Shown: piece after piece, positions 20,065-37,733 of the stretch
Position numbering within the stretch: position 1 is the stretch's first letter
How the letters are laid out: the number at the start of each line of letters is the position of its first letter
NCBI GenBank assembly: GCA_038248245.1
Contig: JBBRUA010000001.1
Span: 1-37,733, forward strand
Length of the DNA stretch: 37,733 nt
Origin: Pyrinomonadales bacterium
Lineage (GTDB): Bacteria > Acidobacteriota > Blastocatellia > Pyrinomonadales > Pyrinomonadaceae
Reading direction: 5' to 3'
The notes under the pieces: model-generated
What the model saw: only the letters and a program-made list of their open reading frames with translations
Databases searched by the model: none
Told to the model about the DNA's origin: nothing
Program-made: the position numbers and the translations under genes

Positions 20065-20091
20065 TAACGAACTTTTTGACTGAATTGCAAA

Positions 20092-20136
20092 GGTCCCGGG
20101 ATCGCCTATTTTGGCAATTCCGGGATCTTTTGTTTT
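20092..20136. terminator. Terminator hairpin between convergent genes (19393-20064 on + and PAAR on -)
   Basis: ggtcccgg (20092-20099) pairs with ccgggatc (20120-20127) for 8 bp including 1 G.U, and is followed by ttttgtttt on the + strand. Confidence 0.55.
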
Positions 20137-20632
20137 AGCCACCGATAAGAACCGTCATTTCGCCTTTCGTAATTGAATTTGGCGGGCCGATCGCCTCGAG
20201 TATCGTGTCTCCCATGCGTCCAGCGGGCAGATTATTAATCATTACTGTCGCCGAACCGGAAATATCGACGCCCGGGCCGTGAGGCGGAACGGGCGAAGGC
20301 ACGGCGCATGTATGAATATCAGCTCCGGCTGAGGCCGCCGTAATTGCACTCGACATCGCGGAAAGAGCGGCGGCTTTCGCGGCTTGTTCGGCAGCGACGG
20401 CGGCAGGTGCTCCCGGCGTACCGGCAGCGGCAACCGTTGCGGCGACCGCCGTTTGGATGGCAGCGTCCGCGGTCGACTTTGCCGCTTGCAACGCCGCCGC
20501 CGCCGCCAACGGTATACCACGCCACGCAGTCGCAAAACCGATCAGTACATTCGGGCTACCCGGCCCCACCGACAACGTCGGCGGCAAAGGATGTGCGGTC
20601 GTATCAACTAAAGCTCGTGCGGCTGGCGGCAT
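20135..20632 (-). CDS. PAAR-domain spike-tip protein with Ala-rich internal insertion
   Basis: The N-terminus is 'MPPAARALVDTTAHP...GSPNVLIG' and the C-terminus is 'HTCAVPSPVPPHGPG...VMINNLPAGRMGDTILEAIGPPNSITKGEMTVLIGG'. SD GAGGAA lies upstream. Confidence 0.85.
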   Translation of the reverse strand: MPPAARALVDTTAHPLPPTLSVGPGSPNVLIGFATAWRGIPLAAAAALQAAKSTADAAIQTAVAATVAAAGTPGAPAAVAAEQAAKAAALSAMSSAITAASAGADIHTCAVPSPVPPHGPGVDISGSATVMINNLPAGRMGDTILEAIGPPNSITKGEMTVLIGG

Positions 20633-20688: not shown

Positions 20689-21378
20689 CTAGAATCGTTC
20701 GAACGAATCCGTGCGTCTCAGGATTTTCAAGCTTCCGAATTTTGGTCCGGACGAAAGTAGCTGTACGTCTTGCAAAAGAGTCGGTTTCCACAAACTGAGT
20801 GCTCCTGGGAGTGCAGCTTCCTTAACCTCAAGGTCTTCGGCTGCGTTGATGTAATGCATTGAGAACAGAATGTTTTGCGAGGTAGAGGGTTCCGTCTTAC
20901 TTGATGCATCCTTGACGAAATAGGGATTGTATTCGTCGACGGGCTCCGGTAGTTCGAATTTTCCCGACAACTCTCCTCCGGGCTCGACTTTAGTGGCAAA
21001 CGGAATGAGCCGCATCTCGACGCGGCGCGTTCGCGGCAGTGCGGCGAGGCCTTTGACGATGTGAAGCGTCCTGTCGTCCCGGAGCAATATATACACCGGC
21101 ATTGGAGCCTCTGCATAGCTGCCGTCCGCCGCAAACTCCCACAGCCGGTCAAAAACGTATATCGGACTTTTTGTAGTATTTTTGAGTTTATAGTTTACGG
21201 ACAGTCGCCCATTCTCAACACCTATGTCGGCGTTCAGCGAAACTCTGCCATTTTCTCCGTCTCGTTCTTCCATCATGGTAATGTTCCTTGTGCCGACTTC
21301 GGCGACGTTGGCGCGGCAGCCCGCGAATTCCCCTATAAGGCAGATCGTAATCAGTATCGTACTAACTTTCTCGTACAT
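20689..21378 (-). CDS. Hypothetical lipoprotein (candidate immunity protein for the VgrG toxin domain)
   Basis: The ATG lies 2 nt after the vgrG stop (TAATTATG). Signal peptide plus lipobox 'EFAGC'. No recognisable domain. Confidence 0.7.
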   Translation of the reverse strand: MYEKVSTILITICLIGEFAGCRANVAEVGTRNITMMEERDGENGRVSLNADIGVENGRLSVNYKLKNTTKSPIYVFDRLWEFAADGSYAEAPMPVYILLRDDRTLHIVKGLAALPRTRRVEMRLIPFATKVEPGGELSGKFELPEPVDEYNPYFVKDASSKTEPSTSQNILFSMHYINAAEDLEVKEAALPGALSLWKPTLLQDVQLLSSGPKFGSLKILRRTDSFERF

Positions 21379-21380
21379 AA

Positions 21381-24044
21381 TTACAATGTCGTATGGTCTC
21401 TTCGACGTGGAATGCCACGGTCGTCTCGATACTCATTGTCGCGATCAATAACATTGCTCTCAGCAATGGCCTGTCCCGGATGGGCTGGATCGGGCGTGTC
21501 ATCATCGCGTGCGTGAGCCCCGTCATCTGCGTGGGCCATCTCGTGATGCAGGCCAACGTCGGCCGGACGATCAATGCTCGGATTTGCAGATGTCGGTAGC
21601 GGCGTGCGATTATAACCGATCTCGCTATCCGTGCCGTTGCCTGTTCCTGTGCCACCGCCTAATGCCGGCTGGCCACTAGCAGCTGCGTCTTGATTATTAG
21701 CGAAATTCGTCACGTTGCCGCCCGTCGTTTCGCTGATGCCGACGGTGTGGCCGCTGTTATTTATGCTGTTCAGCGTGTTCATGCCTGTCGGATGGTTTGC
21801 CATCTCCGTCAAGTCAGCAAGCACCTGATCCTGGAAATCCGGGTTCGCCGGGTTTGGGCGGATCACTATGCCGTTTCCAACAGTGACGCTTCCATCTGCG
21901 TTTCTGGTAGTTGCAAATGGAGGTGCGTGTTGACCTGTTAGGTTACGTCGTCTGCGGCCACCACCACCACCACTTCGCGGACGATCTAGATAACCCGGCT
22001 CTCCGGTGTCCGCCACTTCCGCATCCAGTGGATCATCGATCGCGGCTGGTGCGGTACCCGCTGCGGCCCCGCCCGAATTGATCTTCACAATCGGGCCAGA
22101 GATCGTCACGCCTGAAAGATCGACCGTAATAAAACTGCCGCCGACCTTTAGACTGATATTTGTCAGTGCCTCAAGCGTGATCGACTGAGCATTGACCTCG
22201 TTCTTACCGGTAACGACGATCTGTCGGCCGCCTTTGACCTCTTCGACTAGATCGCCTTTGATTCCTTCGTTGAGTTTGCCGTCAATTCCAATATACTTAT
22301 CGCCTTTCACATGTAGGTCGTAGTTACCGCCGACGGAGATTGCGAGGTTGCCGCCTGGCTGATTGTCGCTCCGCATGCCGATCGATTCCTGGCGATTGCC
22401 GCCGCAGGTTTCGTACATCGAGCCTTTCACTCTGAGGTCATATCGCTTTTGCGATCGGATGAAAACCTGCTCTTTGCCTGCCTTGTCCTCGAAACGCAGT
22501 TCGTTGAATCCTTTGCCGTCGTCGGGTGAGGTTCGCGTTTTGATGTACGTCAGCGTTTTGAATTTCGGCAGTTCGTAGTGCGGCATCGTCTCGGGGTTGT
22601 ATGCCGAACCGATGATGATCGGCTGATCGGGGTCGCCGCCGAGAAAATCGACGATGACCTCTTGCCCTACACGCGGAATGAACATCGTGCCCCATTTATT
22701 GCCCGCGATGTTGGTCGCGACGCGCAGCCAGCATGACGAGGTCGCATCGAGCTGACCGAGTCGGTCCCAGTGGAAATGCACCTTCACGCGGCCATATTTG
22801 TCGACAAAGATCTCTTCGCCGGACGGACCGGTGACGGTCGCAGTCTGGCTGCCGTAAACGATCGGCTTTTCGGTCCGGCGCAACGGACGGAACGGAGCCT
22901 GTCCTTCGCCCTGCGGAATACTGGTGAAACTCACGGAGTAAGCATTCGAGATCGCGTCATCGGAAACGTAACCGGGCGATTGGACGGCCTCGGTCCTGAC
23001 GGTAACAAGGACATGATTGCGGTTATTCGCGGCGATCGGATGCGTGGTCAACTGAAAACGATATCCGGCGGTTATCGCACAGCAATCGGCACTGCCGGGA
23101 CTACTTTTATAGGCAACATCGATCTCCTCCTGACGGATCCCCACCGTCCGTGTGCGGTCGTCAAAAACTTTCTGCAAAACGCTTGGCTGTTCGCCTCCGC
23201 CGGAGTCTATTCCGTCAAAGCGTTTCGCATATTCGCCCGGATGATCGTAAACCTCGATGTCCTGATTACCGCCGATATTAAAGCGGCTCATCTGGACGGC
23301 CTCAAGCGAATTCGTCGGGAGCTGGAAGTTATAATCGCGAAGCGTAAATTTACCGGCCCGCACCTTGTTCGCGACCCGCCACGAAGTCACACGTCCCGAC
23401 CATTCTTCCTGATCTGCCGCAATGTCTTCGGCGAAAGGTATCTCCGCTTTCGTCGGACATGGACGATGCGATCCCGGCGTATTGCCAATCACCAGCCGGT
23501 GCGAATCGGCGGTGTGTTCGAAATAATAGTAGATTCCTTCTTCTTCCATCAGCCGCGAGGCGAAGTTGAAGTCGGATTCGCGATACTGAACGCAGTAATT
23601 TCGCGGTTCGAATGTTCCCTGGATCTCATCGTCGTACTCGTAACCGTCAAAAACCCGGCGCAAGATCTCCGGCACCGATTGATTCTGAAAGATGCGGCTT
23701 TGCGAGTTTTGTGAGAGTAGCCAGAATTCCGGTACGAGTTCTGCCTTGTACTTTGAGAAGCGCTCGTTGCGATTGCCCTGCGTGAAATCGACGCAGATGC
23801 CATTAAAAAAGCGTTCGGCACCGTCGGCCTGCGTCACGCTGACGGTCATTTTTTGTCCCAGCAATTGCTGCGGATCGATGAGCGTCGGTTCGTTGCCGGC
23901 CTCCTCTTCCTCGTGCAGCATCTCAAGCTCAAAACGAAAAAGCTGCGAAATACCCTCGGCCGCACGGATCCGTTTGATCAGCAAAAAATCCGCCGCCAGC
24001 GGCGTCGCCAAACTTAATAATCTACCTTCTTGCGTCGTTGACAT
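21381..24044 (-). CDS. vgrG: T6SS spike protein VgrG (TssI) with C-terminal HExxH metallopeptidase-like extension
   Basis: The gp27/gp5-like core includes 'WGTMFIPRVGQEVIVDFLGGDPDQPIIIGSAYN' and beta-helix repeats ending at 'PIVKINSGG'. About 235 extra residues follow and contain 'GLHHEMAHADDGAH'. Confidence 0.95.
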   Translation of the reverse strand: MSTTQEGRLLSLATPLAADFLLIKRIRAAEGISQLFRFELEMLHEEEEAGNEPTLIDPQQLLGQKMTVSVTQADGAERFFNGICVDFTQGNRNERFSKYKAELVPEFWLLSQNSQSRIFQNQSVPEILRRVFDGYEYDDEIQGTFEPRNYCVQYRESDFNFASRLMEEEGIYYYFEHTADSHRLVIGNTPGSHRPCPTKAEIPFAEDIAADQEEWSGRVTSWRVANKVRAGKFTLRDYNFQLPTNSLEAVQMSRFNIGGNQDIEVYDHPGEYAKRFDGIDSGGGEQPSVLQKVFDDRTRTVGIRQEEIDVAYKSSPGSADCCAITAGYRFQLTTHPIAANNRNHVLVTVRTEAVQSPGYVSDDAISNAYSVSFTSIPQGEGQAPFRPLRRTEKPIVYGSQTATVTGPSGEEIFVDKYGRVKVHFHWDRLGQLDATSSCWLRVATNIAGNKWGTMFIPRVGQEVIVDFLGGDPDQPIIIGSAYNPETMPHYELPKFKTLTYIKTRTSPDDGKGFNELRFEDKAGKEQVFIRSQKRYDLRVKGSMYETCGGNRQESIGMRSDNQPGGNLAISVGGNYDLHVKGDKYIGIDGKLNEGIKGDLVEEVKGGRQIVVTGKNEVNAQSITLEALTNISLKVGGSFITVDLSGVTISGPIVKINSGGAAAGTAPAAIDDPLDAEVADTGEPGYLDRPRSGGGGGRRRRNLTGQHAPPFATTRNADGSVTVGNGIVIRPNPANPDFQDQVLADLTEMANHPTGMNTLNSINNSGHTVGISETTGGNVTNFANNQDAAASGQPALGGGTGTGNGTDSEIGYNRTPLPTSANPSIDRPADVGLHHEMAHADDGAHARDDDTPDPAHPGQAIAESNVIDRDNEYRDDRGIPRRRDHTTL

Positions 24045-24929: not shown

Positions 24930-27665
24930 CTAGACGATCTGATAACTAAAATTCCCGTCCTCGCCCGTCGCGACATGGACGCTTTGCAGTCCGTCACCCG
25001 TCGCCATCCGCGAAAGCACCTCGCCCGACATTTGCGGTAAAAGCGTTCCGGTCAGGATGTTATAAACGTTGCGGGCACCGCTGTCGACATCGGTGCAGCG
25101 TTTCGCCACTGTCTCGATGACTGAATCGTCGTAGGTGAATTTCGCTCCATGATTGTCCATAATACGGCGTTCGATCTTCTTGAGCTGGAGTTTTACGATC
25201 AGCCGCAGAATGTCATCGGAGATCGGGTAATAAGGAACTGTGACCATGCGGCCGAGCAACGCCGGTTTGAACGCCTGATTCAACTCCGGTTTGACCGCGT
25301 CGACGAGGCCGTCGGGCAAAGGTTTTGTATCCGGATCGGCACAGAGCTTCATGATCGTGTCGGTGCCGACATTCGACGTGAGCAAGATGATGCAGTTCTT
25401 GAAGTCGATCTCGCGACCCTCGCCGTCTTCGAGCACGCCTTTATCGAACACCTGAAAGAAAAGCTCCATCACGTCCGGGTGGGCCTTTTCAACTTCGTCG
25501 AGCAAAACGACGGAATACGGTTTGCGTCGCACTGCCTCGGTGAGAACTCCGCCTTCGCCATAGCCGACGTATCCCGGAGGCGAGCCTTTGAGACTCGAAA
25601 CCGTGTGTGCCTCCTGATACTCGCTCATGTTGATCGAGATCAGATTGCGTTCGCCGCCGTAGAGCGATTCGGCGAGGGCGAGGGCAGTTTCGGTTTTACC
25701 AACGCCGGACGTACCAACAAGTAGAAACACGCCGATCGGACGTTTCGGATCTGTTAATCCGGCTCGTGAGGTGCGAATTCGCTGCGCGATCGCCTCGAGT
25801 GCATGATCCTGGCCGAGAACGCGTTCCTGCAATGTCGCTGCAAGGTTCAACACCGCATTTATCTCGTCCGCGACCATTTTGCCGATCGGAATTCCGGTCC
25901 AGCCCGAGATCACCTCGGCCACTGTCTGCCCATTCACCACCGGTTGCATTAGCGGGTCATCGCCCTGAATTTGCTTCAATTCCGCATTAGCCTGCTTCAA
26001 TTCAGCCTTGAGAGCCTCGTTGTCGACCGGCTCGGCGACGGCCGTTGGAGCTTTGGTTTCAATCGCGGCCTCTTCACCTTCCGCCGGAGCCGTCGCCTCA
26101 GTTTTAGCATTTGAAGGCTGAGCATCGAGCCTTGTCATCTCGAGTTTGAGGCGAATGTTGCGAATTCTGTCCGTCAATTCACGCTCTTTCGCCCATTGTT
26201 CATTCAGTTTCGCAAGCTCTGCGTCCGTCTCCGTGCGTTTGGCGATCAGCTCGGCGAGCCGTGTGTCGTGACCGGCACCGGTGACCTGTTCGCGTTCAAG
26301 AGCTTCGATCTCGGATGTCAGATTCTGGATCCGGCGAGTTGCGTCCTCGACCGAAGCAGGTGTTGCACCCTGACCGATTGCGACTTTCGCACAGGCCGTA
26401 TCAAGGACCGACACACTTTTATCCGGCAACTGGCGGCCGGTAATGTAGCGAGCGGAAAGCTTAACGCTCTCGACGATCGCTTCGTCGAGGACGCGAACGT
26501 TGTGATGCTCTTCCATTTTCCCGGACAGGCCGCGCATCATTGCTATTGCCTTTTCTTCGTCAGGTTCTTCGATCTTGACGACCTGAAAGCGGCGGGCTAG
26601 GGCCGCGTCCTTCTCAAAATATTTTTTGTATTCCGCCCAGGTCGTTGCCGCGATCGTGCGAAGTTCGCCGCGTGCCAAGGCAGGTTTGAGCAGATTGGCG
26701 GCGTCGTTCTGTCCGGCCGCTCCGCCCGCACCGATCATCGTGTGGGCCTCGTCGATAAACATAATTATAGGCTGCGGCGAAGATTTAACCTCGTCGATCA
26801 CCGATTTCAAACGCTGTTCGAACTCGCCTTTGATTCCCGCACCGGCCTGCAAAAGCCCGAGATCCAAGGATCGCACCGAGCAATTCCTAAGCGGTTCCGG
26901 GACATCACCGATGGCGACACGTGCGGCAAATCCCTCAACTACCGCAGTTTTACCGACGCCGGCCTCACCTGTCAGGATCGGATTGTTTTGCCGGCGGCGG
27001 GTGAGAATATCGACGATCTGCCTGATCTCGCCGTCACGCCCGAGGATCGGATCGATCTTCCCGGCCCGAGCTTTCGCAGTCAGGTCTTCTGTGTATTGAT
27101 CAAGTGCCTTCGTTTTGCCCGCAACGCCGCTCGCGACCGGAGCTCCGTCGGATGTCGCGGCAGTTTCGCCGAGAGCGACCGCGTCACGTTCCTCGGCCGA
27201 ATCCGCTGTTATCTCAGCCAGCTTTGTCTGCAGAGATTCAGCGGAAATGTGTGCGAATTCGCGAGAGATCTCACGAGCTATCCGTGCGTAATTCTCATTC
27301 AGAACTAGCGCAAGGATCAAATGTCCGGAGCGGACGCGGGCTGCACCAAAATCGACGGAAGCCAGCAACCACGCGTCCTGTATCCATCGCGGCAGCCGGT
27401 CGCTGAGGCCGGGCGTACGCGAATTGCCACTCTTTAGCCGATCAAGCGCGTTACTGACATCTTTCGTGAGACGGTCAATATTGACCTCGTAATGATTACA
27501 GATCTTGTGCAGATCGGTGTCGTCTTGCTCGAGCAGTTTCGCCAAAATATGCTCGATCTCGACATCATAATTCGTCCGCGAAAGACAAAGCCCGGCCGCA
27601 CCCTCAAGTGCGTTTCGACTCGTGTCATTCAATCTACCGACCAAAGATTTAAGATTTACGTTCAT
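24930..27665 (-). CDS. clpV: T6SS AAA+ ATPase ClpV (TssH)
   Basis: The protein has a Clp N-domain and two Walker A motifs ('GEAGVGKTAV' and 'GTSGVGKTE'). The middle coiled coil and 'RPIGVFLLVG' are present. Length is 911 aa. Confidence 0.95.
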   Translation of the reverse strand: MNVNLKSLVGRLNDTSRNALEGAAGLCLSRTNYDVEIEHILAKLLEQDDTDLHKICNHYEVNIDRLTKDVSNALDRLKSGNSRTPGLSDRLPRWIQDAWLLASVDFGAARVRSGHLILALVLNENYARIAREISREFAHISAESLQTKLAEITADSAEERDAVALGETAATSDGAPVASGVAGKTKALDQYTEDLTAKARAGKIDPILGRDGEIRQIVDILTRRRQNNPILTGEAGVGKTAVVEGFAARVAIGDVPEPLRNCSVRSLDLGLLQAGAGIKGEFEQRLKSVIDEVKSSPQPIIMFIDEAHTMIGAGGAAGQNDAANLLKPALARGELRTIAATTWAEYKKYFEKDAALARRFQVVKIEEPDEEKAIAMMRGLSGKMEEHHNVRVLDEAIVESVKLSARYITGRQLPDKSVSVLDTACAKVAIGQGATPASVEDATRRIQNLTSEIEALEREQVTGAGHDTRLAELIAKRTETDAELAKLNEQWAKERELTDRIRNIRLKLEMTRLDAQPSNAKTEATAPAEGEEAAIETKAPTAVAEPVDNEALKAELKQANAELKQIQGDDPLMQPVVNGQTVAEVISGWTGIPIGKMVADEINAVLNLAATLQERVLGQDHALEAIAQRIRTSRAGLTDPKRPIGVFLLVGTSGVGKTETALALAESLYGGERNLISINMSEYQEAHTVSSLKGSPPGYVGYGEGGVLTEAVRRKPYSVVLLDEVEKAHPDVMELFFQVFDKGVLEDGEGREIDFKNCIILLTSNVGTDTIMKLCADPDTKPLPDGLVDAVKPELNQAFKPALLGRMVTVPYYPISDDILRLIVKLQLKKIERRIMDNHGAKFTYDDSVIETVAKRCTDVDSGARNVYNILTGTLLPQMSGEVLSRMATGDGLQSVHVATGEDGNFSYQIV

Positions 27666-27687
27666 TACTATTCTCCTAATAGGTTAT

Positions 27688-27714
27688 AACCACAGAGGCA
27701 CTGAGGCACAGAGA
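27688..27714. repeat. Left arm of the 27-nt inverted repeat flanking the GxxExxY gene
   Basis: aaccacagaggcactgaggcacagaga matches 24/27 with the reverse complement of 28083-28109. Confidence 0.85.
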
Positions 27715-27716
27715 GG

Positions 27717-28115
27717 TCAATTTCGCATTCTTTTTAAACCATTTTTCAATAGTGGCTCATGAAAATTCAACAACAATCCAAGAGGTAAATTCGCGAGCCG
27801 CAGGTATGAAAGTAGTTGTGCCTCGTGGACAGGAATAATTTTGGTCACCGCTTTTAGTTCGACGACGACAATACCTTCCACAACAATATCCATCCTATAC
27901 CCACAATCAAGTTTTACATCTTTGTAAACCACGGGCAGTGCAACCTGTCGAAGAAAACCTAAGCCTTTTTGAGACAGTTCGTAACATAGACACTCCTCAT
28001 AGGCAGATTCCAATAGGCCGGGACCGAGTACACGATGGACATCGATCGCACCACCGATGATGGCCTCTGTTATCTCATTTAATCTCTGTGTCTCCGTGTC
28101 TCTGTGGTTAAACAT
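27717..28115 (-). CDS. GxxExxY protein (PD-(D/E)XK nuclease-fold family)
   Basis: '[13 protein letters not shown]' carries the GxxExxY motif. '[17 protein letters not shown]' is a D...E-x-K-like core. The N-terminus is 'HRDTETQR'. The ATG abuts the tssG stop (TAAATG). Confidence 0.9.
28083..28109. repeat. Right arm of the 27-nt inverted repeat (inside the 5' end of the GxxExxY gene)
   Basis: The reverse complement reads aaccacagagacacggagacacagaga. This segment encodes the 'NHRDTETQR' N-terminus. Confidence 0.85.
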
Positions 28116-29117
28116 TTATTGGAGCACCACCTGACCATCGTCTTGTTTAAAAGGCTTCGTCTTTAAAAATGTTGTCCATCCGAGCGTTGGTTTTCTCAAA
28201 GCTCTTGTCGTTAAAATGGTCGCCGGCACCTGTTTTGCACCAAGTACGAGTTGAAGATCGAAATCGAACTCGAGACCGACCATAAATTTGCAGATCGAAC
28301 GCAACGCCGCGTTCGCCGTGCCGTTCGGCAGGAACGCCTGAAAAGTTTTAAGGTCGAGCGGGCCGAGCCGGACGCGCATTTTCGACTGCTGGTCCCATAC
28401 ACGCGAACCAACGATCGCACTTTGACCGAGACGACTGTTCTCTTTGCCAAGTTTTGTGAGATCTTCGTCACCGAGGCTTAACCATTGACCGTAAAACTGT
28501 TCGATTTTTGCCGTAGTTTGGAAATAATCGCTCAAAATATTTTCGAGAGCGTTCGCCGTGTGCGGCTTTTGGGCGATGAGGCCCGCGTATGGTAAAAGGG
28601 TTTCATCGTCAAGATCGAGCCGGCCGCGAAGGCCTTTCGTACCCAAACCCGCGAAGTCGAACAGGTACGACGTGAACTCGTCGTCGCCGCGTTCATACGC
28701 GACCGGAAAACGATATTTTGCCCAGGCACGATAGAACATCGAAACGGCCCGGTGCGTAAAAATATCGAGAAACGACCACATCGCCGTGTCGCGGTGACGG
28801 ATGCGGTCTAGAACGAGCTCGGTGTAATGGGTCGGCAAAACTCCGCTGACGCCGACGACGCCCATGAAATTAACGAGCATCTCCGTGCGTTTCGCGTCGC
28901 CATCCTTTGCCTCGATCTCATTTATCTCGTGGATCTCGCTGGACGGAAAATCAAGAGCGATGCGCGACCGGAACCGAACGACCTCATCCTTAGGCAAGGC
29001 CGTCCCGCCGACCGCCTGCCGGTCGGGAGCCATCTTCTCAAGCAACCGCACCGCCTGAAAAAATTCAAACGAGTACGGTTCCTCAAAAAGTTTTTTGTCC
29101 AGTTTCTTCTCAGCCAC
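28116..29117 (-). CDS. tssG: T6SS baseplate protein TssG
   Basis: The N-terminal 'YSFEFFQAVRLLEK' and the overall pattern are TssG-like. The GTG at 29117 is the first start codon after an in-frame TAG. Confidence 0.9.
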   Translation of the reverse strand: MAEKKLDKKLFEEPYSFEFFQAVRLLEKMAPDRQAVGGTALPKDEVVRFRSRIALDFPSSEIHEINEIEAKDGDAKRTEMLVNFMGVVGVSGVLPTHYTELVLDRIRHRDTAMWSFLDIFTHRAVSMFYRAWAKYRFPVAYERGDDEFTSYLFDFAGLGTKGLRGRLDLDDETLLPYAGLIAQKPHTANALENILSDYFQTTAKIEQFYGQWLSLGDEDLTKLGKENSRLGQSAIVGSRVWDQQSKMRVRLGPLDLKTFQAFLPNGTANAALRSICKFMVGLEFDFDLQLVLGAKQVPATILTTRALRKPTLGWTTFLKTKPFKQDDGQVVLQ

Positions 29118-29122
29118 GATGG

Positions 29123-29220
29123 TTTGGTTTCTGGTTTCTGGTTCCTAGTTTCTGAATTCTGAATTCTGAATTCTGAATTCTGAATTCTGAATTCTGGTTT
29201 CTGAATTCTAGCTTCTACCT
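29123..29220. repeat. Tandem heptanucleotide array (14 units, consensus TCTGRWT; 7x TCTGAAT) filling the tssF-tssG spacer
   Basis: Direct reading gives tttggtt, tctggtt x2, cctagtt, tctgaat x6, tctggtt, tctgaat, tctagct, tctacct. The array creates seven GAATTC sites. Confidence 0.9.
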
Positions 29221-29225
29221 TCCAA

Positions 29226-31109
29226 TCACAACAATTCCTGCTCTCCCGCTCTCGGCGGGAAGCGTTTGACGATCTCTTCTCTTTGCTGAGTTTTGAGGAC
29301 CATTTGGTTGAACGAATTGAGCGATGCGTACAAACCCAAAAATCGTTCGAGCACGCAGGAAAACAGGTACATTCCGCTGCCGACGTACTGCTCTTCGTCG
29401 AAGGTCAGCGTCGTTTCGAGGCCGCGGACGAAACCGGCACCGATGCGTCCGCCGATCTGCCGGACGACCTTTCGCGACTCGATGCCAGTAATACCAAGGA
29501 TCTGCTTTCGCGAAACATTCGAATCGTTAAAGTTGTACAGATGCAGGATCTCTTGCAATGCCTCGGGCGTTCCATTTTCTCCGCCGACTATCGAGAGATA
29601 ATTTAGATTGAGGTGCGAGATCAGACGCCAGTGGGCGCTTCGCCGCTGTGGCGGACGGATCGTTTCCGTCGGCTTGGTCAAACATTTCACACGCGACAAC
29701 AGTGCTGTTCCCTCGACTTCGAAATCGCCTTCTTTCCCGCCGAACGGCAATCTCGCCGGCAGATCGCGGTTCGTGCAGGTCGTTTTCACATTCAAAACTT
29801 CGACCGCCGGTATCAGCGGATCAAAATCCATATCGACGAGAGACATAAATATCTCGGTACCTTCGTCATCCGGCCTTTGCGAGGCCCGGCGGACGGTGTA
29901 CCAGAAAGATTTTTCCATCTGTTCACCGTAGGCGTGACGCATCGAGTAAAACGGCGAAAAATCGCGGGTCGTATTCGTTCGAGGATCGCTCGTTATAACT
30001 TCGTCAACGGAATAGATCTCGGTTGACGATTGCCGGTGAACATCGGGTATGACCTGATATTCGTATTTTTGCTGTGATAGATAAATTGGATCCGAGAGTT
30101 TAGAGAACAGGTTGACGATCGGCGTGCAGCCCATTCGAAAAGTCTCATTTGAAACCGGAGCGACCGGCGGCGTTATGTCCTTGAGATGGATCAGTATGTC
30201 AAAATGACTGCCAAATTTTTTCGCGATCGCCTGATCGAGCCCGTGAATATCAACGAACAAAAATTTATACGGAAACGAAAAATACTCCGTCAGCAGCCGA
30301 TAGCCCATGAACGAGCGTTTCGTGTACGGTAGTAGCGACTGGTCGTCGTTGAAACCGACCTGTTTTATCACATCGCTGGCCGGCAGAATTATCGGATCGG
30401 GCAATTTGGCTTGAAAATTCGTGATCGTCTTATTGCCGATCGGCTGCTCTTTGGCCCGAAATTCGACCGTCGTTGCGTGATTAAAAATGATCTCGTACAG
30501 CGGAAATACGAGTTGCGGGTCGCCGTCGAGGTAAAATCGAATAGATCCCGGCGGCTTTCCATTAGCTCCGGATCTCATTTCGTGCAGGTTCGCGTCGCCG
30601 AAACACCGCATACTGAGCCTGATGTGACTGTCGGCGAATTTCCCGCGGCCGTCTTTTGGAGCGGCTGATTCGAGAGCGGCGCTCTGGATCTCCATCGGCA
30701 TCAGATCGACATCGTAAGCGGTGCGAAATCGGCACGGGCTGCCGTCGATCGGACGGGAATTGAGTCGCGAACCGGCTTCCATTTTTTGCACGGCGGTCAG
30801 TTTATCGTTAGGCGAACCGTAAGAGAATTGGGCGATCGCCATCGACGGTATCGGCGAGAGATAGTGTGGGTAAAGGACGTTAAAAAACGCCTCGGTGATC
30901 TCCGGCAGTTCGTCGTCGAGCTTGAGTCCGATGCGGCCCGTGAGGTATGCGAAGGCCTCGATCATCCGCTCGACATGCGGGTCCTCGATCTTTTCCTCAT
31001 CGAGTTCGAGACGGGCGGCGATCTTCGGATAACGACGGGCGAACTCCGCACCCATCCGGCGCAGAAAAACGAGTTCCCGCTCATAATATCCTAAGAGTTC
31101 ATCGCGCAT
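29226..31109 (-). CDS. tssF: T6SS baseplate protein TssF
   Basis: The N-terminus 'LLGYYERELVFLRRMGAEFARRYPKIAARL' is the typical TssF start. Length is 627 aa. Confidence 0.95.
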   Translation of the reverse strand: MRDELLGYYERELVFLRRMGAEFARRYPKIAARLELDEEKIEDPHVERMIEAFAYLTGRIGLKLDDELPEITEAFFNVLYPHYLSPIPSMAIAQFSYGSPNDKLTAVQKMEAGSRLNSRPIDGSPCRFRTAYDVDLMPMEIQSAALESAAPKDGRGKFADSHIRLSMRCFGDANLHEMRSGANGKPPGSIRFYLDGDPQLVFPLYEIIFNHATTVEFRAKEQPIGNKTITNFQAKLPDPIILPASDVIKQVGFNDDQSLLPYTKRSFMGYRLLTEYFSFPYKFLFVDIHGLDQAIAKKFGSHFDILIHLKDITPPVAPVSNETFRMGCTPIVNLFSKLSDPIYLSQQKYEYQVIPDVHRQSSTEIYSVDEVITSDPRTNTTRDFSPFYSMRHAYGEQMEKSFWYTVRRASQRPDDEGTEIFMSLVDMDFDPLIPAVEVLNVKTTCTNRDLPARLPFGGKEGDFEVEGTALLSRVKCLTKPTETIRPPQRRSAHWRLISHLNLNYLSIVGGENGTPEALQEILHLYNFNDSNVSRKQILGITGIESRKVVRQIGGRIGAGFVRGLETTLTFDEEQYVGSGMYLFSCVLERFLGLYASLNSFNQMVLKTQQREEIVKRFPPRAGEQELL

Positions 31110-31153
31110 TTACGTCCGTATTATAGCTTAGATGAGAAATTTATTGAACCGAA

Positions 31154-31639
31154 TTATTTTTCGATTACGGCGAATTCGCCGCTGCCTGATTGCAGGATCG
31201 TGTCAAATACCACCGGTTCGGGCGTCGGATCAAGGTCGAGCCGGGCCTCGATCCTGAATCGGAGATGGCGGTCGATGTTTTCGACGGGATCGAGCGTTAC
31301 CTTGGCGTTAAGGAATCGTGGTTCGAAAGTCTTTATTGCCAGTTCGAGAGCCTTGGTTAGACGCTTTTGTTCCGCCGGACTTTTCGGGCTCATCCCCATA
31401 ATGTCGGGCAGGCCGTAGAATTCGACCGAACGCCTGACCTCCGAGTTTTCGTCACTGTCGAGATCTCCGTGGCACCGCGTATTTAATAGCCACTCAAGGT
31501 CGCGACGCACCGATGCCTTTAGTTCCTGCAGGCTGGTAGATCGGGATTTCGAAGCCTCGGTCGAGACCCTCGGTTCCAGATCGATCAGCCGGTCGAGAAC
31601 CGACGGCGTAACCCGCATTTCGAGATCGCTTCTGGCCAT
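31154..31639 (-). CDS. tssE: T6SS baseplate protein TssE (gp25-like)
   Basis: ATG at 31639 (MARSDLEMRVTPSVLDRLID...). 'LKASVRRDLEWLLNTR' and 'SVEFYGLPD' follow the GPW/gp25 pattern. The upstream ORF extension covers a hairpin. Confidence 0.85.
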   Translation of the reverse strand: MARSDLEMRVTPSVLDRLIDLEPRVSTEASKSRSTSLQELKASVRRDLEWLLNTRCHGDLDSDENSEVRRSVEFYGLPDIMGMSPKSPAEQKRLTKALELAIKTFEPRFLNAKVTLDPVENIDRHLRFRIEARLDLDPTPEPVVFDTILQSGSGEFAVIEK

Positions 31640-31649
31640 TGTCTGAATT

Positions 31650-31710
31650 TGAAAAGACGAGAAAAAATAAATTTTGCAGGGCTCGCGGCATTTCGCCGCA
31701 GAGCCCTGCA
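31650..31710 (-). terminator. Strong stem-loop (15 bp, 1 bulge) downstream of hcp; terminator/attenuator-like
   Basis: tgcagggctcgcggc-atttc-gccgcAgagccctgca spans 31675-31710. On the sense (minus) RNA it is followed by AAAAUUUAUUUUUU. Confidence 0.5.
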
Positions 31711-31734
31711 TTTTGTCGACAGATAAGGTAGAAG

Positions 31735-32223
31735 TTAAACCTTCTTGTTTGCCTTGACGTCGTATCCGGCCTTGATGGCACCACCTAGCGAACCGTCCAC
31801 CTTCTGTTCTTTATACTCAAACTCGACCTTTGCGAAGTTGAGCGAGATCTGATCGGTCGGCCCCGAACCGCCGCCTGCCGAAGCACCTGTCTGGTAGGAC
31901 GACACCAAAACATCGGTAAATGTTACCTTCAGGTATTCCTGTTGATCCGTACCTGCTTTGCGGCAGACCAGGGTTGCCTTCTTGATGTGTTCGCCGGTCG
32001 CACACGTGAGCATCAGTTTTGGCGATGCCTTGTTCATATTCATAACAAAGTGAAAGTCCTGCATCGAAACCTTACCCGATCCGCCGCCGCCGCCGGCACT
32101 AAATGAACCGGCATTCGATGCGCCCCATGAAAAGGACTGGAGATCGATGTCGCCCTTATGTTTGCTGTCTGCGCTTTCGCCGTCGATACCGTCTAACTTT
32201 AAGAAAAAATCTACTGATGCCAT
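31735..32223 (-). CDS. hcp: T6SS tube protein Hcp (TssD)
   Basis: ATG at 32223. 'MASVDFFLKLDGIDGESADSKHKGDIDLQSFSWG' is the canonical Hcp N-terminus. Length is 162 aa. Confidence 0.9.
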   Translation of the reverse strand: MASVDFFLKLDGIDGESADSKHKGDIDLQSFSWGASNAGSFSAGGGGGSGKVSMQDFHFVMNMNKASPKLMLTCATGEHIKKATLVCRKAGTDQQEYLKVTFTDVLVSSYQTGASAGGGSGPTDQISLNFAKVEFEYKEQKVDGSLGGAIKAGYDVKANKKV

Positions 32224-32293
32224 TTTTTTATGCTCCTTTAATATCAATCTATAAACTTGCTAATGACCGTTTCATCAGCCACATCATTAAGAC

Positions 32294-32342
32294 GCAAACG
32301 CGAAAAGTTTTTGCATACTTTTGAAAAACTTTTCGCATTTGC
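32294..32342. repeat. 19-nt-arm inverted repeat (11-nt loop) in the tssC-hcp intergenic region
   Basis: gcaaacgcgaaaagttttt (32294-32312) pairs with aaaaacttttcgcatttgc (32324-32342) at 18/19 positions. The single mismatch becomes a G.U pair on the sense (minus) transcript. Confidence 0.8.
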
Positions 32343-32352
32343 GAGGTAAAAG

Positions 32353-33843
32353 TTAGCCGTTGGCCGGCTGCGGCAGTTCGGCGACGAGCCGAAGCGACAC
32401 AGATAGTTCGTCTAATTGGAAATGCGGCTGCATAAAGGCAACTGCACGGTAACAGCCGGGTTTGCCCGGTATCTCGGCGACCTCGATCCGGCCCTCTCTC
32501 AGTGGATACTGAGCTTTGGTAGCGGGCGAAGCGTTGTCGTCGTCGGTCACGTAGTTATTGATCCATTGATTAAGGAACATCTCGCAATCTTTACGTGACA
32601 TGAACGAACCGATCTTGTCACGCATCATCGATTTTAGATAATGCGCGAATCGGGACATGGCGAAAATGTACTGCAATTGCGTCGAAAGCCGCGCGTTAGC
32701 ATTTGCGGAATCCGAATCGTACTTTCTCGCTTTGTTGGCGGATTGAGCACCGAAGAATGCGGCGTAATCCGTTCCTTTGCAATGCACGAGCGGGATAAAG
32801 CCGTTATCGGCGAATTCCTTCTCGCGGCGATCAGTGATGGCGACCTCGGTCGGGCACTTCATCGCGACCTCGCCTTCGTCGGTGGCGAAGGTATGGGTCG
32901 GCAGTCCGGCAACGAGCCCGCCGCCTTCAACTCCGCGGATAGCGACGCACCAGCCGTACATCGAGAATGCCTCGGTCAGGCGAGTTCCCAATGCGTAAGC
33001 GGCATTGCCCCACAGATATTTTTTGTTATCAGTGCCATCGACATCTTCTTCAAAGCGAAACGTCTCGGTCGGTTTTGTCGCCGCTCCGTATGGTTCACGC
33101 ATCAGGACGTGCGGAATGGTCAGGCCGACATAGCGTGAATCCTCCGACTCGCGGAAGCTGCGCCATTTCATATACTCGGTGCGGTCAAAGATCTTAGCTA
33201 CATCTCGAACCTCAGACATTTCCGAATACGAATCCCAGCCGAACATACCCGACGACGCGGCGCTCAAGAATGGAGCGTGAGCCGCGGCGGCAACCTGCGA
33301 AATGCTCTCGAGCAAAGCCATATCCTGCGGATGGTTGCCGAACTCGAAATCGCCGATCAGAGCACCGAATGGAGCTCCGCCGAATGTGCCGTACTCTTCC
33401 TCATAGATCTTTTTGAACATCGCCGACTGGTCAAATTCTAAAGCGCGTTCAAAATCCTTGAGCATGTCCTTTTTAGTGACGCTCATTACTTTGATCTTCA
33501 GTTGGGGGCCGGTGATGCTGTTTTTGATCAAATGATGCAGACCGCGCCACGAGCCTTCCAGTTTCTGGAAATCTTCCTGGTGCATGATCTCATTCATCTG
33601 AGCGGAAACGAGACGGTCGATCTCGGCGATGCGTGAATTGATCGCGACGTCCATATTCTTGGACATCGTAAGTTCGCCGCTCATCACCTGAGAGACGAAT
33701 TCGCCGATCATATCCTTGGCGCGTTCCTTTTGAAAATCGTCGCGGGCCATTCGGCCGTCGGTCAAGATCTTGTCGAGCAGGCCTCCGCCCGCTTCGGCCT
33801 CAACCGTTTCGACGGCAGCAGTTTCTTCTTTTGTCTTTGCCAT
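32353..33843 (-). CDS. tssC: T6SS contractile sheath large subunit TssC (VipB)
   Basis: The 496-aa protein shows blocks typical of TssC as I recall the family, including 'PFGALIGDFEF' and 'PLREGRIEV'. It lies immediately downstream of tssB. Confidence 0.95.
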   Translation of the reverse strand: MAKTKEETAAVETVEAEAGGGLLDKILTDGRMARDDFQKERAKDMIGEFVSQVMSGELTMSKNMDVAINSRIAEIDRLVSAQMNEIMHQEDFQKLEGSWRGLHHLIKNSITGPQLKIKVMSVTKKDMLKDFERALEFDQSAMFKKIYEEEYGTFGGAPFGALIGDFEFGNHPQDMALLESISQVAAAAHAPFLSAASSGMFGWDSYSEMSEVRDVAKIFDRTEYMKWRSFRESEDSRYVGLTIPHVLMREPYGAATKPTETFRFEEDVDGTDNKKYLWGNAAYALGTRLTEAFSMYGWCVAIRGVEGGGLVAGLPTHTFATDEGEVAMKCPTEVAITDRREKEFADNGFIPLVHCKGTDYAAFFGAQSANKARKYDSDSANANARLSTQLQYIFAMSRFAHYLKSMMRDKIGSFMSRKDCEMFLNQWINNYVTDDDNASPATKAQYPLREGRIEVAEIPGKPGCYRAVAFMQPHFQLDELSVSLRLVAELPQPANG

Positions 33844-33849
33844 TTTGTC

Positions 33850-34362
33850 TTAGTCCTCCTTCGCGATGCCCAACTGATCGCTCAATTCTTTCTGCTGCGA
33901 TGCATTGGAAATAATATCCTCCAGCATTGATTCCAGTTTGTCGTTGCCGTCCATCTTCGAGCGAAGATCGGCCAGTTTCTGCCGTGCCTCGACGAGTTTA
34001 CGGAGCGGTTCGACCTGGTTGACGATGTTGTCGGGTTCGAAATCTTCGATGCTGTTAAATTTAAGCTCGACGCCCATCTTGCCGCCGTCGTCGGCTAACT
34101 TGTTGTCGACGGTGTAGGCGAGCCGCGGAGCCATGCCGGAAAGGACCTGATTGAAATTATCAGGATCGATCTCGACGAACTTCCGGTTTTTAAGTGCCGG
34201 CAGGGCAACTTCGGGTTTACCGACGAAATCGCCCATCACGCCGATGACGAATGGCAATTCTTTTAACTCGATCGCTCCGCCGACCTCGACATCGTAGGTG
34301 ATCTGGACTCGCGGCGGGCGAACCCGGTCGATCTTATGCTGCAAACTTTCTTTTTTTGGCAT
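33850..34362 (-). CDS. tssB: T6SS contractile sheath small subunit TssB (VipA)
   Basis: 'RPPRVQITYDVEVGGAIELKELPFVIGVMGDF' is the typical TssB core. Length is 170 aa. Confidence 0.95.
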   Translation of the reverse strand: MPKKESLQHKIDRVRPPRVQITYDVEVGGAIELKELPFVIGVMGDFVGKPEVALPALKNRKFVEIDPDNFNQVLSGMAPRLAYTVDNKLADDGGKMGVELKFNSIEDFEPDNIVNQVEPLRKLVEARQKLADLRSKMDGNDKLESMLEDIISNASQQKELSDQLGIAKED

Positions 34363-34467
34363 TCTAATTATCTCCTTTGGGTTGAACTTTTAAATTTTTG
34401 AACGATCAATACAAACCTGTGGCGATCGCGGGTTTTCCGAATTTCGGGTCCGCAACCGTCGAGAAAT

Positions 34468-35667
34468 TTACCATTCGTCACTGCTCGACTCGGTCGATGT
34501 TTCGGTCGATTCGGTGTCGTCAGAGCTGCTCCAGTCGCCGGATGAGGCCGGCGATCCGGCGTCCAGGCCGAGCGTTTCACGAAGCTGAAACAAGACATTT
34601 TCATCCTTGATCACATCGCGGAGCCAAGTTTCGAGCGGCATATTGCCCCACTTGACGGCCCGCTGAATAAGATAGGCGACCGGGCTGTGCGGTTCGGTAC
34701 GCTGAAAATAGGTGGCGATCTCGGCCAGACGTTTGAGCGCTTCGGGCCGACTTTTTACCGGGCCGCCGCCGCCGGTTGCTGTTGCCACGACCTCGCCATC
34801 ATCGGATACCTCTTCCGTGTAAGTTTCCTCGACGTCATTTTCGTTCGGCTCCTCTAGTCGTTTCTTATCGAGCAACTTCTTGACTTGACCGTGGACCTCG
34901 TCGATCGCCTTTTTAAGATTAGAGAGCCCGGGCGTTTGATTGCGATCGTAATTGTTATCGATTACGCGATTCAGATCGTCGAGAGCTGTCCAGCATTCGT
35001 CGATCGTATAATTGAGCGTTTCGAAAAACGCCCGCCGCGATTGTGCCATTGCCGACTTCCACATATCGGCGGTCACCCGGCGTTCGGCCTCGGCCTGAGC
35101 TTTCAGTTCGCTGAATTTTGCCTGAGCGTCCGGGTCGAGCGTGTCGAGATTAGACGGAATGTCGAATCGTTTCGCATCCTGCCAGTCGGTGTAGCCATAT
35201 CCGGCACCGGCCGTGATCGGACACGACCTGACAGCCTTGGCACCTTGTAGATCGAGCCACGCGATCGCATTCGCCCGGCCTTCCATATCGCCTTCGTCGA
35301 TCTCGGGATGGAGAGTTTCCCAAAAATTTTCCTGCAATCCCGCGACCAGTTTCAGACTGTCGCGCAGTCCGGAGAAACTATGTATCTTGATGAGTGCTTC
35401 GGAGAGCCAAACCGCGATCTGCAGGTCTTTTGAGGTGGCTGTCAGAGCAGGAACGGCCAGCTCGACCACCTTTCGGAAATCCGCGACCTTTAGTTCTGTC
35501 TGCCAATCGCCCTGATTCGCATCAACATCTGCCCGCCGAGCGTCGGATATCTCATCGTAAAGGCCCGAATAGCGCAGGGTCTCGCCCGCCGGATTTTCCT
35601 CGGAAACCGGCTGCAAGAGTGCGTCGAGATCGACCACCGGCGGTTGTTGAAGTTCGTCGCTCATCAA
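34468..35667 (-). CDS. tssA: T6SS protein TssA (ImpA N-terminal domain family)
   Basis: 'LLQPVSEENPAGETLRYSGLYDEISDARR' is the ImpA_N motif. The C-terminal region contains 'HSPVAYLIQRAVKWGNMPLETWL', followed by an acidic Ser/Thr tail. Confidence 0.85.
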   Translation of the reverse strand: MMSDELQQPPVVDLDALLQPVSEENPAGETLRYSGLYDEISDARRADVDANQGDWQTELKVADFRKVVELAVPALTATSKDLQIAVWLSEALIKIHSFSGLRDSLKLVAGLQENFWETLHPEIDEGDMEGRANAIAWLDLQGAKAVRSCPITAGAGYGYTDWQDAKRFDIPSNLDTLDPDAQAKFSELKAQAEAERRVTADMWKSAMAQSRRAFFETLNYTIDECWTALDDLNRVIDNNYDRNQTPGLSNLKKAIDEVHGQVKKLLDKKRLEEPNENDVEETYTEEVSDDGEVVATATGGGGPVKSRPEALKRLAEIATYFQRTEPHSPVAYLIQRAVKWGNMPLETWLRDVIKDENVLFQLRETLGLDAGSPASSGDWSSSDDTESTETSTESSSDEW

Positions 35668-35768
35668 AAAAAGACTCCTTGCTGAATAAACAAAGACGGA
35701 TGAAGATCAGTAATTTGCCGAAAACGAGATAATAATACCCGAATTTACAAAATAAGGGAATAAATTTT

Positions 35769-36575
35769 TTACGCGTCAGTTTCTTCGTGGTTGAATTCGA
35801 TCGTTTGGATATCGAGTATCGATCGCTCTTTGCCGTCCATCCAAAAAAGCTTCACGCCTTCGCCGGTGAACAGATCATCGCCGAGATCGTGCCAATCGAC
35901 CATTCGCCCGAGACGCACCTGATCGTTTTCGTGCTTCCACGAACCGGAATAAAGAGCCGGGAAAAACATCTCGCCGTTCGTACCGTTCGTCATCTCAACC
36001 TGAGCTTGTAACCAGTAGAGATCACGCAGCGATTTGGGTGCGAAAAACTCAACCTTATTCACATTCTCAAACGGGAGCCACGTGTATGTGTCTTTGAAAA
36101 TGATCTCAAATAGACACATCGTCGCGTCGTTAAAATCGCGAAAATCTTCGACCTCCGTTCCGTTTACAGTACACGCGAACGCCGGACGCTCTTCCTCGAC
36201 CGTATCGAGGATGGTGCGGGCCTCGCCGATATTGCCCTCGCGGATACGGTTGTTGGCGGCGAGCATGTCTTCAATGTAGGACGGCGGCGGAGCCAGAATG
36301 CCGGGTTTGAGACCATCGCCAAAAAAACTCAAACGATCGCCCTCGGCCTTTAGGCATTGTCGAAAGATCATCGACCCGATCAACGCGTTGGCGTCCTGAT
36401 GGCCGATAACGTCAAGCTGTTTTTCCGCCCGATCCCAATTGCCTGAGAACAGCGACAATTCGAACAAAAATATGCGTGCCGGAATATTCGTCGGGTTTGC
36501 CCGAACCAAATCCAAAGCCGCCGCAACGGCTCCGGTTAAGTCGCCTGCATCAAGAAGTTTTTTGGCTGTTTCCAT
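35769..36575 (-). CDS. tagJ: T6SS accessory protein TagJ (ImpE/SciE family)
   Basis: The N-terminus is TPR-like: 'AKKLLDAGDLTGAVAAALDLVRANPTNIPARIFLFELSLFSGNWDRAEKQL'. The size (268 aa) and the position between tssM and tssA fit ImpE. Confidence 0.8.
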   Translation of the reverse strand: METAKKLLDAGDLTGAVAAALDLVRANPTNIPARIFLFELSLFSGNWDRAEKQLDVIGHQDANALIGSMIFRQCLKAEGDRLSFFGDGLKPGILAPPPSYIEDMLAANNRIREGNIGEARTILDTVEEERPAFACTVNGTEVEDFRDFNDATMCLFEIIFKDTYTWLPFENVNKVEFFAPKSLRDLYWLQAQVEMTNGTNGEMFFPALYSGSWKHENDQVRLGRMVDWHDLGDDLFTGEGVKLFWMDGKERSILDIQTIEFNHEETDA

Positions 36576-36585
36576 AGTCCCTCGC

Positions 36586-37733
36586 CTATTGAAGTAAGTT
36601 TTGCGGTGCTTTCACCTGACGGAAAATATTCTTGTCGAAAAGGTCTCCGCCGCTCGGTTTGATCGTCGCCGAAATTCCTTTGCCGCCGATGCTGTAGCCC
36701 AACGCGTACTCGCCGCCCGGCTGTTTCGAAGCCTTTCCGGCATCGACGAAGCGGAACAGTCCCCAGTTGCCGGGGAACTTAAGCGTTCCGGGAGCATCCG
36801 GCACCGACGATTTCGTTGCCGGTGCGGGAGAATTTGTGTTCGTCGCCGGAGGCGGAGCTGTTGTGGTTGTCGCCGGTGCCGACGATGCCGAGCTCATGAT
36901 CACACCGGTCTCTGCAGATGCCGCCGCCGGGAAAGTTCCCTTGATCGAGGAAGTTCCCTCGGATGTGATCTTTTGGCCGTCGATGACGACCTCGATGATC
37001 GCTTCTTTGCCCGGTTTGAAGCTGAACTCGTATTCAAATTTCGGAGTTGGACTCGTTCCGAATAGCGCCTTTCTGAGCGCGAATGCATTATTCAGATACG
37101 CGACAAACTCGTCGCTAAATTTCACGTCGGCAGTGTCCTTCATCTTGAGCTGACCATTCGATTCTTCGAAATATTTCTTCAGCCGCTCGTCGTAGAATTT
37201 GGAAAGTTTGCCGTCCACCGGATTGAGATATGCAGTCAATTTCGTGAGATCGGACTCGGCCTGGCCATCTTCGAACGGGTAGCCTTTCTCGATCTCTTTC
37301 GCCGCCGGGAGGATCTGTTCCGTCCACGCTTTCGATATCTGCGTTTTGGCATCGGCGCCGAGCAGGCCTTTCAGATTGCCGAGCGGCTCTTGGATCAAAA
37401 CCGCCAACTCCTGCGACGACGGCGTTTCGCCAAATCCTTGGATAAGGTTTGAAACCGCAGTTTCGCCGGCCCGCAATTTGAGTTTGTCGTCCTTGTCGTT
37501 CGCCAGATCCTGAGCGATCTCTTTCAGCTGATCGGCGGAGATGCCGCTGAAACGATTCGATATCTTGCCGATCTCGGCACGATATTTTTCGATCGCAGCG
37601 TTCTCTTTTTCTTCTTTCTTACCAACGAAGGTGAACAGTGGGCGGAATTCCTTTTCGGTTTGCGTTGAGCCGCCAGTTTCTTTGTTCTCCGCTGTAAATA
37701 TGAAACTCTTGATCCATTCCCACCAGCCTTGAA
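36586..37733 (-). CDS. tssM: T6SS membrane-complex protein TssM (IcmF), C-terminal part; the gene continues beyond the window edge
   Basis: I checked by hand that the frame stays open from 37733 down to TAG 36586-36588. The track's 'M' at 37476 is an internal TTG/Leu. The C-terminus 'LNPVDGKLSKFYDERL...ALRKALFG...GNWGLFRFVD' is IcmF-like. Confidence 0.85.
   Translation of the reverse strand, partial: QGWWEWIKSFIFTAENKETGGSTQTEKEFRPLFTFVGKKEEKENAAIEKYRAEIGKISNRFSGISADQLKEIAQDLANDKDDKLKLRAGETAVSNLIQGFGETPSSQELAVLIQEPLGNLKGLLGADAKTQISKAWTEQILPAAKEIEKGYPFEDGQAESDLTKLTAYLNPVDGKLSKFYDERLKKYFEESNGQLKMKDTADVKFSDEFVAYLNNAFALRKALFGTSPTPKFEYEFSFKPGKEAIIEVVIDGQKITSEGTSSIKGTFPAAASAETGVIMSSASSAPATTTTAPPPATNTNSPAPATKSSVPDAPGTLKFPGNWGLFRFVDAGKASKQPGGEYALGYSIGGKGISATIKPSGGDLFDKNIFRQVKAPQNLLQ

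Follow-up and report, generated by a model that had tools for sequence, protein, structure and literature searches.

A VgrG spike with a C-terminal M91-type zincin domain and its candidate immunity partner in Acidobacteriota

Zinc peptidases of the NleD/HopH1 type (MEROPS family M91, Pfam PF14891, Tox-HopH1) carry a signature of HExxH and [DE]N according to Zhang et al. 2012, and Tox-HopH1 domains were found in polymorphic toxins of type VI secretion systems (T6SS) (PMC3482391). NleD cleaves JNK and p38, and TepB enters HeLa cells (PMC9846239, PMC10442045). TepB, or Tpe2 (PA14_33970), of Pseudomonas aeruginosa PA14 binds VgrG3 and is secreted by the H3-T6SS (PMC10442045, PMC9846239). Further M91 domains are reported in PAAR-Rhs-M91 proteins of Salmonella SPI-19 (PMC8867033) and in Rhs-M91 proteins of Shiga toxin-producing Escherichia coli (STEC) (PMC8867033; bioRxiv 10.1101/2024.03.05.583533). 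The light chains of botulinum neurotoxins (BoNT, family M27) are the nearest structural relatives of M91, and a published M91/M27 comparison describes the M91 peptidases as lacking their SNARE-binding insertions (PMC6367388). That VgrG spikes can bear a metallopeptidase, as the original prediction noted, is documented for P. aeruginosa VgrG2b, for which antibacterial action in the periplasm and a periplasmic immunity protein were shown (PMC6899460). Here we describe a vgrG (tssI) gene with a metallopeptidase-like extension, together with the gene directly behind it, from a Pyrinomonadales bacterium of the phylum Acidobacteriota. The analysed stretch, hereafter the window, comprises 37,733 nucleotides (assembly GCA_038248245.1, contig JBBRUA010000001.1, positions 1 to 37,733), and all coordinates refer to it.

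In our view, with a probability of roughly 0.65, the locus encodes a toxin directed at bacteria, an M91 zinc endopeptidase borne on the spike, together with the exported immunity protein that belongs to it. Although Acidobacteriota are a dominant phylum of soils, they are poorly cultured, and to our knowledge their T6SS biology is essentially unexplored. A literature search returned nothing on VgrG::M91 fusions, on the partner family or on any T6SS effector of Acidobacteria.

The M91 domain of the spike protein

The vgrG gene extends over positions 21381..24044 on the minus strand (stop codon 21381-21383) and codes for a specialised ("evolved") spike of 887 residues. Residues 1-650 are a bona fide VgrG, both by their domains and by their T6SS and PAAR context. 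They match TIGR03361 at 543.7 bits (NCBIfam cut-off 186), and Pfam assigns Phage_GPD to residues 30-355, Phage_base_V to 415-482 and Gp5_trimer_C to 501-609, followed by Peptidase_M91 at 734-850. An exact-sequence look-up of the 887-residue protein gave no match. The original prediction proposed an NleD-like domain behind the beta-helix, and its landmarks are all in place. The end of the beta-helix, PIVKINSGG, expected around residue 650, is located at residues 651-659, the GGGGGRRRR element at 692-700 (codon of G692 at 21969-21971), and VTVGNG starts at residue 720. HEMAH occupies residues 834-838 (codons 21545..21531), with E835 as the presumed catalytic Glu, and the terminal motifs NEYRDDRG and RRRDH are found at 870-877 and 880-884.

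The extension proper, approximately residues 708-887 (21384..21923, minus strand), was assigned with Pfam, AlphaFold2 and Foldseek. Peptidase_M91 scores 50.9 bits (E = 3e-13) against the whole protein and 54.0 bits (E = 3e-14) against the tail alone, with a curated gathering score of 25, far more than chance would give. When the 20 nearest homologues in the database are aligned (A1, also the basis of the AlphaFold2 model), H834, E835, H838, E862, I866, N870, Y872, R873, R876, R881 and H884 are invariant or nearly so. In the numbering of that alignment the near-invariant columns are H156, E157 and H160 in HEMAH, and E184, N192, Y194, R195 and R198 in the second catalytic helix. The zinc-binding and catalytic HEMAH motif (H834, E835, H838; 21531..21545, minus strand) lies on one helix of the model (residues 150-165), and E862, D869-N870, Y872, R873 and R876 lie on the next (182-198; 21417..21461, minus strand). 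E862 is a candidate for the third zinc ligand. The HExxH and [DE]N signature of Tox-HopH1 (PMC3482391) is thus present, and HExxH is retained in most VgrG-length relatives. HEMAH as a chance motif was considered and rejected.

The model of the tail has a mean predicted local distance difference test (pLDDT) score of 84, with 91-98 in the blocks of the domain and disorder confined to the linker in front of it. A Foldseek search of the PDB with this model, which the original prediction expected to reveal a zincin, gave exclusively BoNT or BoNT-like catalytic domains among the top 50 matches (E 1.4e-5 to ~3e-3; TMq 0.4 to 0.51), including BoNT/X, PG1, the Enterococcus BoNT homologue and BoNT/E, /A, /B, /F and /G. 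Searches of PDB chains by sequence, with the single domain and with a profile, found nothing meaningful; matches to an aldehyde dehydrogenase and to pARN4 were discarded as noise. A tblastn search of the domain against plasmid and phage collections was likewise without a match. With profile, HExxH, [DE]N with the third Glu, and predicted fold in agreement, and with each of the three computational checks proposed in the original prediction giving the outcome it expected, the assignment of the extension to the M91 zincins is supported, and endopeptidase activity is predicted.

The beta-helix and the domain are connected by a linker of approximately residues 660-707 (21924..22067, minus strand; AAAGTAPAAIDDPLDAEVADTGEPGYLDRPRSGGGGGRRRRNLTGQH), which is conserved in homologues and predicted to be disordered. 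In the model, residues 1-28 (VgrG 679-706) have pLDDT values below 50. The same linker, DPLDAxxADTGEPGYLDRPRxGGG with a basic run, recurs in two further VgrGs, P0117 and P0169, the cargo of which is DUF6782. The DUF6782 domain also has an HExxH motif but differs from M91, and what these proteins share with VgrG::M91 is limited to the linker. The linker looks like a modular junction at which C-terminal toxins are swapped.

Scanned in full with HMMER, 1.84 billion cluster representatives yielded 960 relatives at E <= 1e-3, 203 of them at E <= 1e-10. Among the best 150 representatives 139 have HExxH, 42 have a VgrG core and 30 are of VgrG length. Nine representatives were scanned with Pfam (P0030, P0044, P0048, P0067, P0031, P0117, P0169, P0121 and P0134): the first four combine VgrG domains with Peptidase_M91, and the last two are RTX::M91 proteins. 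No characterised VgrG::M91 was found, but the fusion is commoner than had been implied, as it is numerous in metagenomes and occurs at ten related loci, and T6SS-borne M91 domains have been published.

The adjacent candidate immunity gene

The vgrG::M91 gene closes a complete T6SS cluster and is followed on the same strand by a 229-residue candidate immunity protein (20689..21378) and by a PAAR gene. The start codon of the candidate, an ATG, is located 2 nt past the vgrG stop, and a homologue lies 3' of every related M91 domain examined. The protein begins with a hydrophobic signal, the last residues of which are FAGC; a disordered linker and an all-beta domain (~45-229) follow. Its AlphaFold2 model (pLDDT 80), which rests on 9 sequences, consists of an all-beta sandwich behind a disordered N-terminus of 43 residues. 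No match was obtained in Pfam, NCBIfam, PADLOC or, by sequence, in the PDB, and the family comprises just 9 clusters among 5.8 billion proteins. Foldseek gave only sub-threshold matches to Ig-like or beta-sandwich proteins (ApaG, the Bacillus subtilis intracellular proteinase inhibitor 3isy, MSP and the AsaP1 propeptide), of which the inhibitor-like ones were not used as evidence.

A scan with one genome per species identified ten related loci (L001-L010), all in metagenome-assembled genomes of Acidobacteriota (Pyrinomonadaceae and Blastocatellaceae; Blastocatellia). The gene order common to these ten genomes is clpV - vgrG::M91 - homologue of the 229-residue protein - PAAR - (XAC2610-like) - fumC, with identities of 48-90% for the M91 domain and 31-57% for the partner protein. 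The PAAR gene is kept 3' of the pair in eight of the loci, and also in L012, L014, L015 and L016. Since the ten loci are syntenic, the window belongs to a member of this group, and the VgrG::M91 fusion is, to judge from these comparisons, an old and vertically kept feature of the main T6SS of this group.

Every partner homologue that could be placed is located immediately 3' of an M91 domain (L001-L012, L014-L016 and JGI sample 3300047160; L013, a 922-bp fragment ending with the M91 gene, is outside this count). The carrier is VgrG in L001-L010, L014, the more distant L015 and L016, the JGI sample and, in Pirellulales, L012. In L011 the carrier is different, namely PAAR::M91. Profile E-values of the partner are 3e-25 (L011), 3e-12 (L012), 1e-33 (L015) and 4e-31 (L016), and the partner also follows M91 directly in P0027 and P0029. 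An immunity gene that is tied to the toxin domain and not to the carrier is a hallmark of polymorphic toxins (PMC3482391). Since the partner is linked to M91 regardless of the carrier, its adjacency and co-inheritance indicate an effector-immunity pair, in which the 229-residue protein would provide the immunity. This unannotated candidate immunity family is the added value of the analysis; it was absent from the original prediction.

A hydrophobic N-terminus ending in Cys was found in 13 of the 16 partner homologues, with motifs such as FAGC (in the window), VSGC, MFGC, FVGC, LTAC and ILGC. This points to an exported and probably lipidated partner. Because of this export signal and the lipobox-like Cys, the toxin would most likely act in the envelope, on an envelope or periplasmic protein. 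A possible second start is present at Met35/Met36 of the partner gene, preceded by AAGGAA (21271..21276, minus strand). A Met at this position, with a purine-rich run resembling a Shine-Dalgarno (SD) sequence in front of it, occurs in all eleven signal-bearing loci examined (L001-L011). The mean anti-SD hybridisation energy at this site is -5.9 kcal/mol vs gene backgrounds of ~-1.4 to -2.4, and the median within-gene rank is 0.1; in three of the eleven loci the value is unremarkable. In L012 and L014 the orthologue begins right at this position and has no signal peptide. A second, cytoplasmic isoform of the partner may therefore exist, which is a reasonable hypothesis.

Proposed role and competing explanations

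In the proposed mechanism the VgrG trimer would be capped by the downstream PAAR protein, and the conserved flexible linker would carry a compact M91-family gluzincin endopeptidase, giving three copies per spike. Sheath contraction would drive the spike into a neighbouring cell, where the protease would then cleave a protein substrate. Zinc would be bound by H834, H838 and the candidate ligand E862, with E835 acting as general base and N870, Y872 and R873 shaping the active site. The all-beta candidate immunity protein, which in this lineage bears a lipobox-like Cys as well as an export signal, presumably binds and blocks the protease. Rival Gram-negative bacteria would most likely be attacked at a protein of the envelope or periplasm, as for VgrG2b-PA0261, and the internal start may give a cytoplasmic isoform that guards the producer before secretion. 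A more far-reaching proposal is tentative, and we would sooner bet against it: the M91/BoNT-like clade, so far seen in anti-eukaryotic effectors only, would hold a widespread branch of antibacterial proteases, served by an all-beta immunity family of their own that is new to the literature. The immunity gene of Blastocatellia would be translated from two starts, one product being a lipoprotein exported to shield the periplasm from attack by sister cells and the other a cytoplasmic isoform that inhibits the protease before firing.

Several observations weigh against the antibacterial toxin-immunity reading. The Pfam alignment spans just profile positions 10-114 of 176, and the helix with E862 and D869-N870-x-Y872-R873 lies outside the aligned stretch, yet this helix bears the [DE]N signature. 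The Foldseek search of the PDB with the partner model gave no significant match to protease inhibitors or immunity proteins. Several of the lipobox-like sequences have a non-canonical D, N or E at -1. In L012 and L014 the partner begins at the beta domain, and the DNA shows no signal-encoding extension; in P0029 a gene call places the partner (192 residues, no called signal) ~40 nt past the vgrG::M91 stop. Since these three homologues are without a called signal, the assignment of the toxin to the envelope is tentative. Four VgrG-length proteins (P0031, P0107, P0119 and P0126) keep the N-terminal half of M91 and have lost the HExxH helix. Of these, P0031 shows only VgrG domains in Pfam and has YQGLT at the HExxH site, and the other three end in Pro-rich tails; these extensions appear degenerate or repurposed. 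Finally, all characterised members of the M91 family come from eukaryote-targeted or eukaryote-facing contexts (PMC9846239, PMC10442045).

The last point leads to the alternative of an effector directed at eukaryotes, as NleD, HopH1 and TepB are. Its M91 domain would enter protists, fungi, nematodes or plant cells to cleave a eukaryotic signalling protein, with the partner serving only as an inhibitor or chaperone on the producer side. All functionally studied M91 proteins have eukaryotic cells as their site of action or delivery (PMC9846239, PMC10442045). Eukaryotic SNAREs are the substrates of the closest relatives in fold, the BoNT light chains, and the partners in L012, L014 and P0029 (in P0029 by gene call only), predicted to be cytoplasmic, fit self-protection before secretion. 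However, T6SS effectors of this kind normally have no dedicated immunity gene, and Tpe2 is predicted to have none (PMC9846239), whereas the partner is invariably linked here and exported in most lineages. Export would make no sense for a chaperone that works in the cytoplasm, whereas protection from sister-cell attack calls for it. Because of the adjacent conserved partner, the likely role moves from the anti-eukaryotic paradigm of NleD to an antibacterial effector-immunity pair, and we regard the anti-eukaryotic alternative as unlikely, if still a serious one. A further alternative is a toxin that acts in the bacterial cytoplasm, for which the functional immunity protein would be the short form from the internal Met, while the N-terminal signal would have a secondary role or no function in Blastocatellia. 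The internal Met in eleven of eleven loci, its SD-like run above the gene background, the start of the L012 and L014 orthologues, the similar length called for P0029 and the 195-residue form picked by gene callers for P0023 and P0024 would be in line with this. On the other hand, the SD signal is weak in three of these loci, and the upstream in-frame extension is open in all eleven although its sequences have very little identity. Without exception it encodes a hydrophobic stretch and then a Cys, likewise in L015 and L016. An open extension of this kind in all loci is a pattern unexpected for non-coding DNA, and we judge a purely cytoplasmic site of action to be quite improbable.

Hardly any weight is given to a non-toxic accessory role, in which the domain would serve, for example, as a peptidase for autoprocessing or release or as a structural adaptor, and the downstream gene would encode a T6SS accessory or chaperone. 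The four VgrGs with a lost HExxH and the polybasic GGGGGRRRR just upstream of the domain could be explained in this way. However, most relatives retain the catalytic motifs, PAAR, Rhs and RTX proteins have the same domain in the place of the toxin (PMC8867033), and the partner matches no known T6SS adaptor family in Pfam.

If the antibacterial reading is true, the locus would encode a conserved T6SS effector of Acidobacteriota that is part of the secretion cluster. The NleD/BoNT-like scaffold, in M91 so far known as eukaryote-directed, would then also serve in bacterial warfare, and the bacterial substrate of the protease-inhibitor pair could reveal a new vulnerable target in the envelope. Since M91 domains on T6SS carriers have already been catalogued, the gain is incremental and not conceptual.

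Genomic setting and comparison with known systems

The T6SS core (24930..37476, minus strand) lies upstream of vgrG in the same orientation and was assigned by Pfam: clpV, tssG, tssF, tssE, hcp, tssC, tssB, tssA, tagJ(impE) and the C-terminus of tssM. On the other side, the PAAR spike-tip protein of 165 residues (20135..20632, minus strand) matches PF05488 at 36.5 bits in two stretches. Between its PAAR motifs there is an Ala-rich insertion of ~70 residues, which is conserved in the Blastocatellia loci and missing from the PAAR proteins of L012 and L014 (96 and 114 residues). Convergent with the PAAR gene is a gene for a secreted 234-residue protein (19360-20064, plus strand), matching the XAC2610-related family of NCBIfam at 97 bits (cut-off 35), to which an immunity protein against a Xanthomonas type IV secretion effector belongs. 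It is conserved in L003, L005 and L006 and may be an orphan immunity gene. Between clpV and vgrG there is a 213-residue open reading frame (24116-24757, minus strand) with a weak DUF4347 match (E = 0.02) and no match in the PDB. Since it is present in only three related loci (L002, L007 and L010), it is a variable accessory or possibly a second effector. Farther away, an open reading frame of 860 residues (6603-9185, minus strand) has no Pfam match at E <= 1e-3 and adjoins an FG-GAP repeat protein (9220-10608). A scan of 19900-25000 for promoters and terminators gave sites no more numerous than in shuffled sequence.

Compared with NleD and HopH1, the domain described here shares the Pfam match, HExxH with [DE]N and the small BoNT light-chain-like zincin fold (PMC3482391, PMC6367388), as well as the C-terminal toxin position on a carrier of a secretion system. 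It differs in being a covalent VgrG extension delivered by a T6SS, whereas NleD and HopH1 are free effectors of type III secretion systems. For Tox-HopH1 no immunity family is listed, in contrast to the dedicated partner gene found here, and Acidobacteriota are absent from its published phyletic list. The BoNT and tetanus light chains (M27) are the best structural matches and likewise have HExxH and, on the helix that follows, a Glu ligand (here the candidate E862). The domain has ~10-13% identity to them and about half their size, and it is not a member of M27. TepB/Tpe2 and the Rhs-M91 proteins of Salmonella and STEC are likewise M91 domains delivered by T6SS, but as cargo or as toxins encapsulated by Rhs and not as VgrG fusions. 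No immunity protein is predicted for Tpe2 (PMC9846239), and the candidate for Salmonella Rhs-M91 is a transmembrane protein of 110 residues, unrelated to the all-beta family described here.

The closest parallel in organization is the pair VgrG2b-PA0261 of P. aeruginosa (Tpe-Tpi). Both loci have an evolved VgrG with an HExxH metallopeptidase and, immediately downstream, an immunity gene, here a candidate, the product of which is directed to the envelope by variable means, namely a signal peptide, a lipoprotein anchor or a transmembrane helix (PMC6899460). Unlike VgrG2b, the domain in Acidobacteriota has a BoNT light-chain-like fold, and the immunity families are different. Homology to the C-terminal domain of VgrG2b was found neither in the PDB sequence searches, the chains of which should include the solved VgrG2b domain, nor among the top 50 Foldseek matches. 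A published statement that assigns the VgrG2b domain to M91 (PMC8867033) found no support in these sequence and fold searches and appears to be inaccurate. The relation to VgrG2b-PA0261 is one of functional analogy only. Toxin modules of this general kind are known, and the pair described here is probably an antibacterial one.

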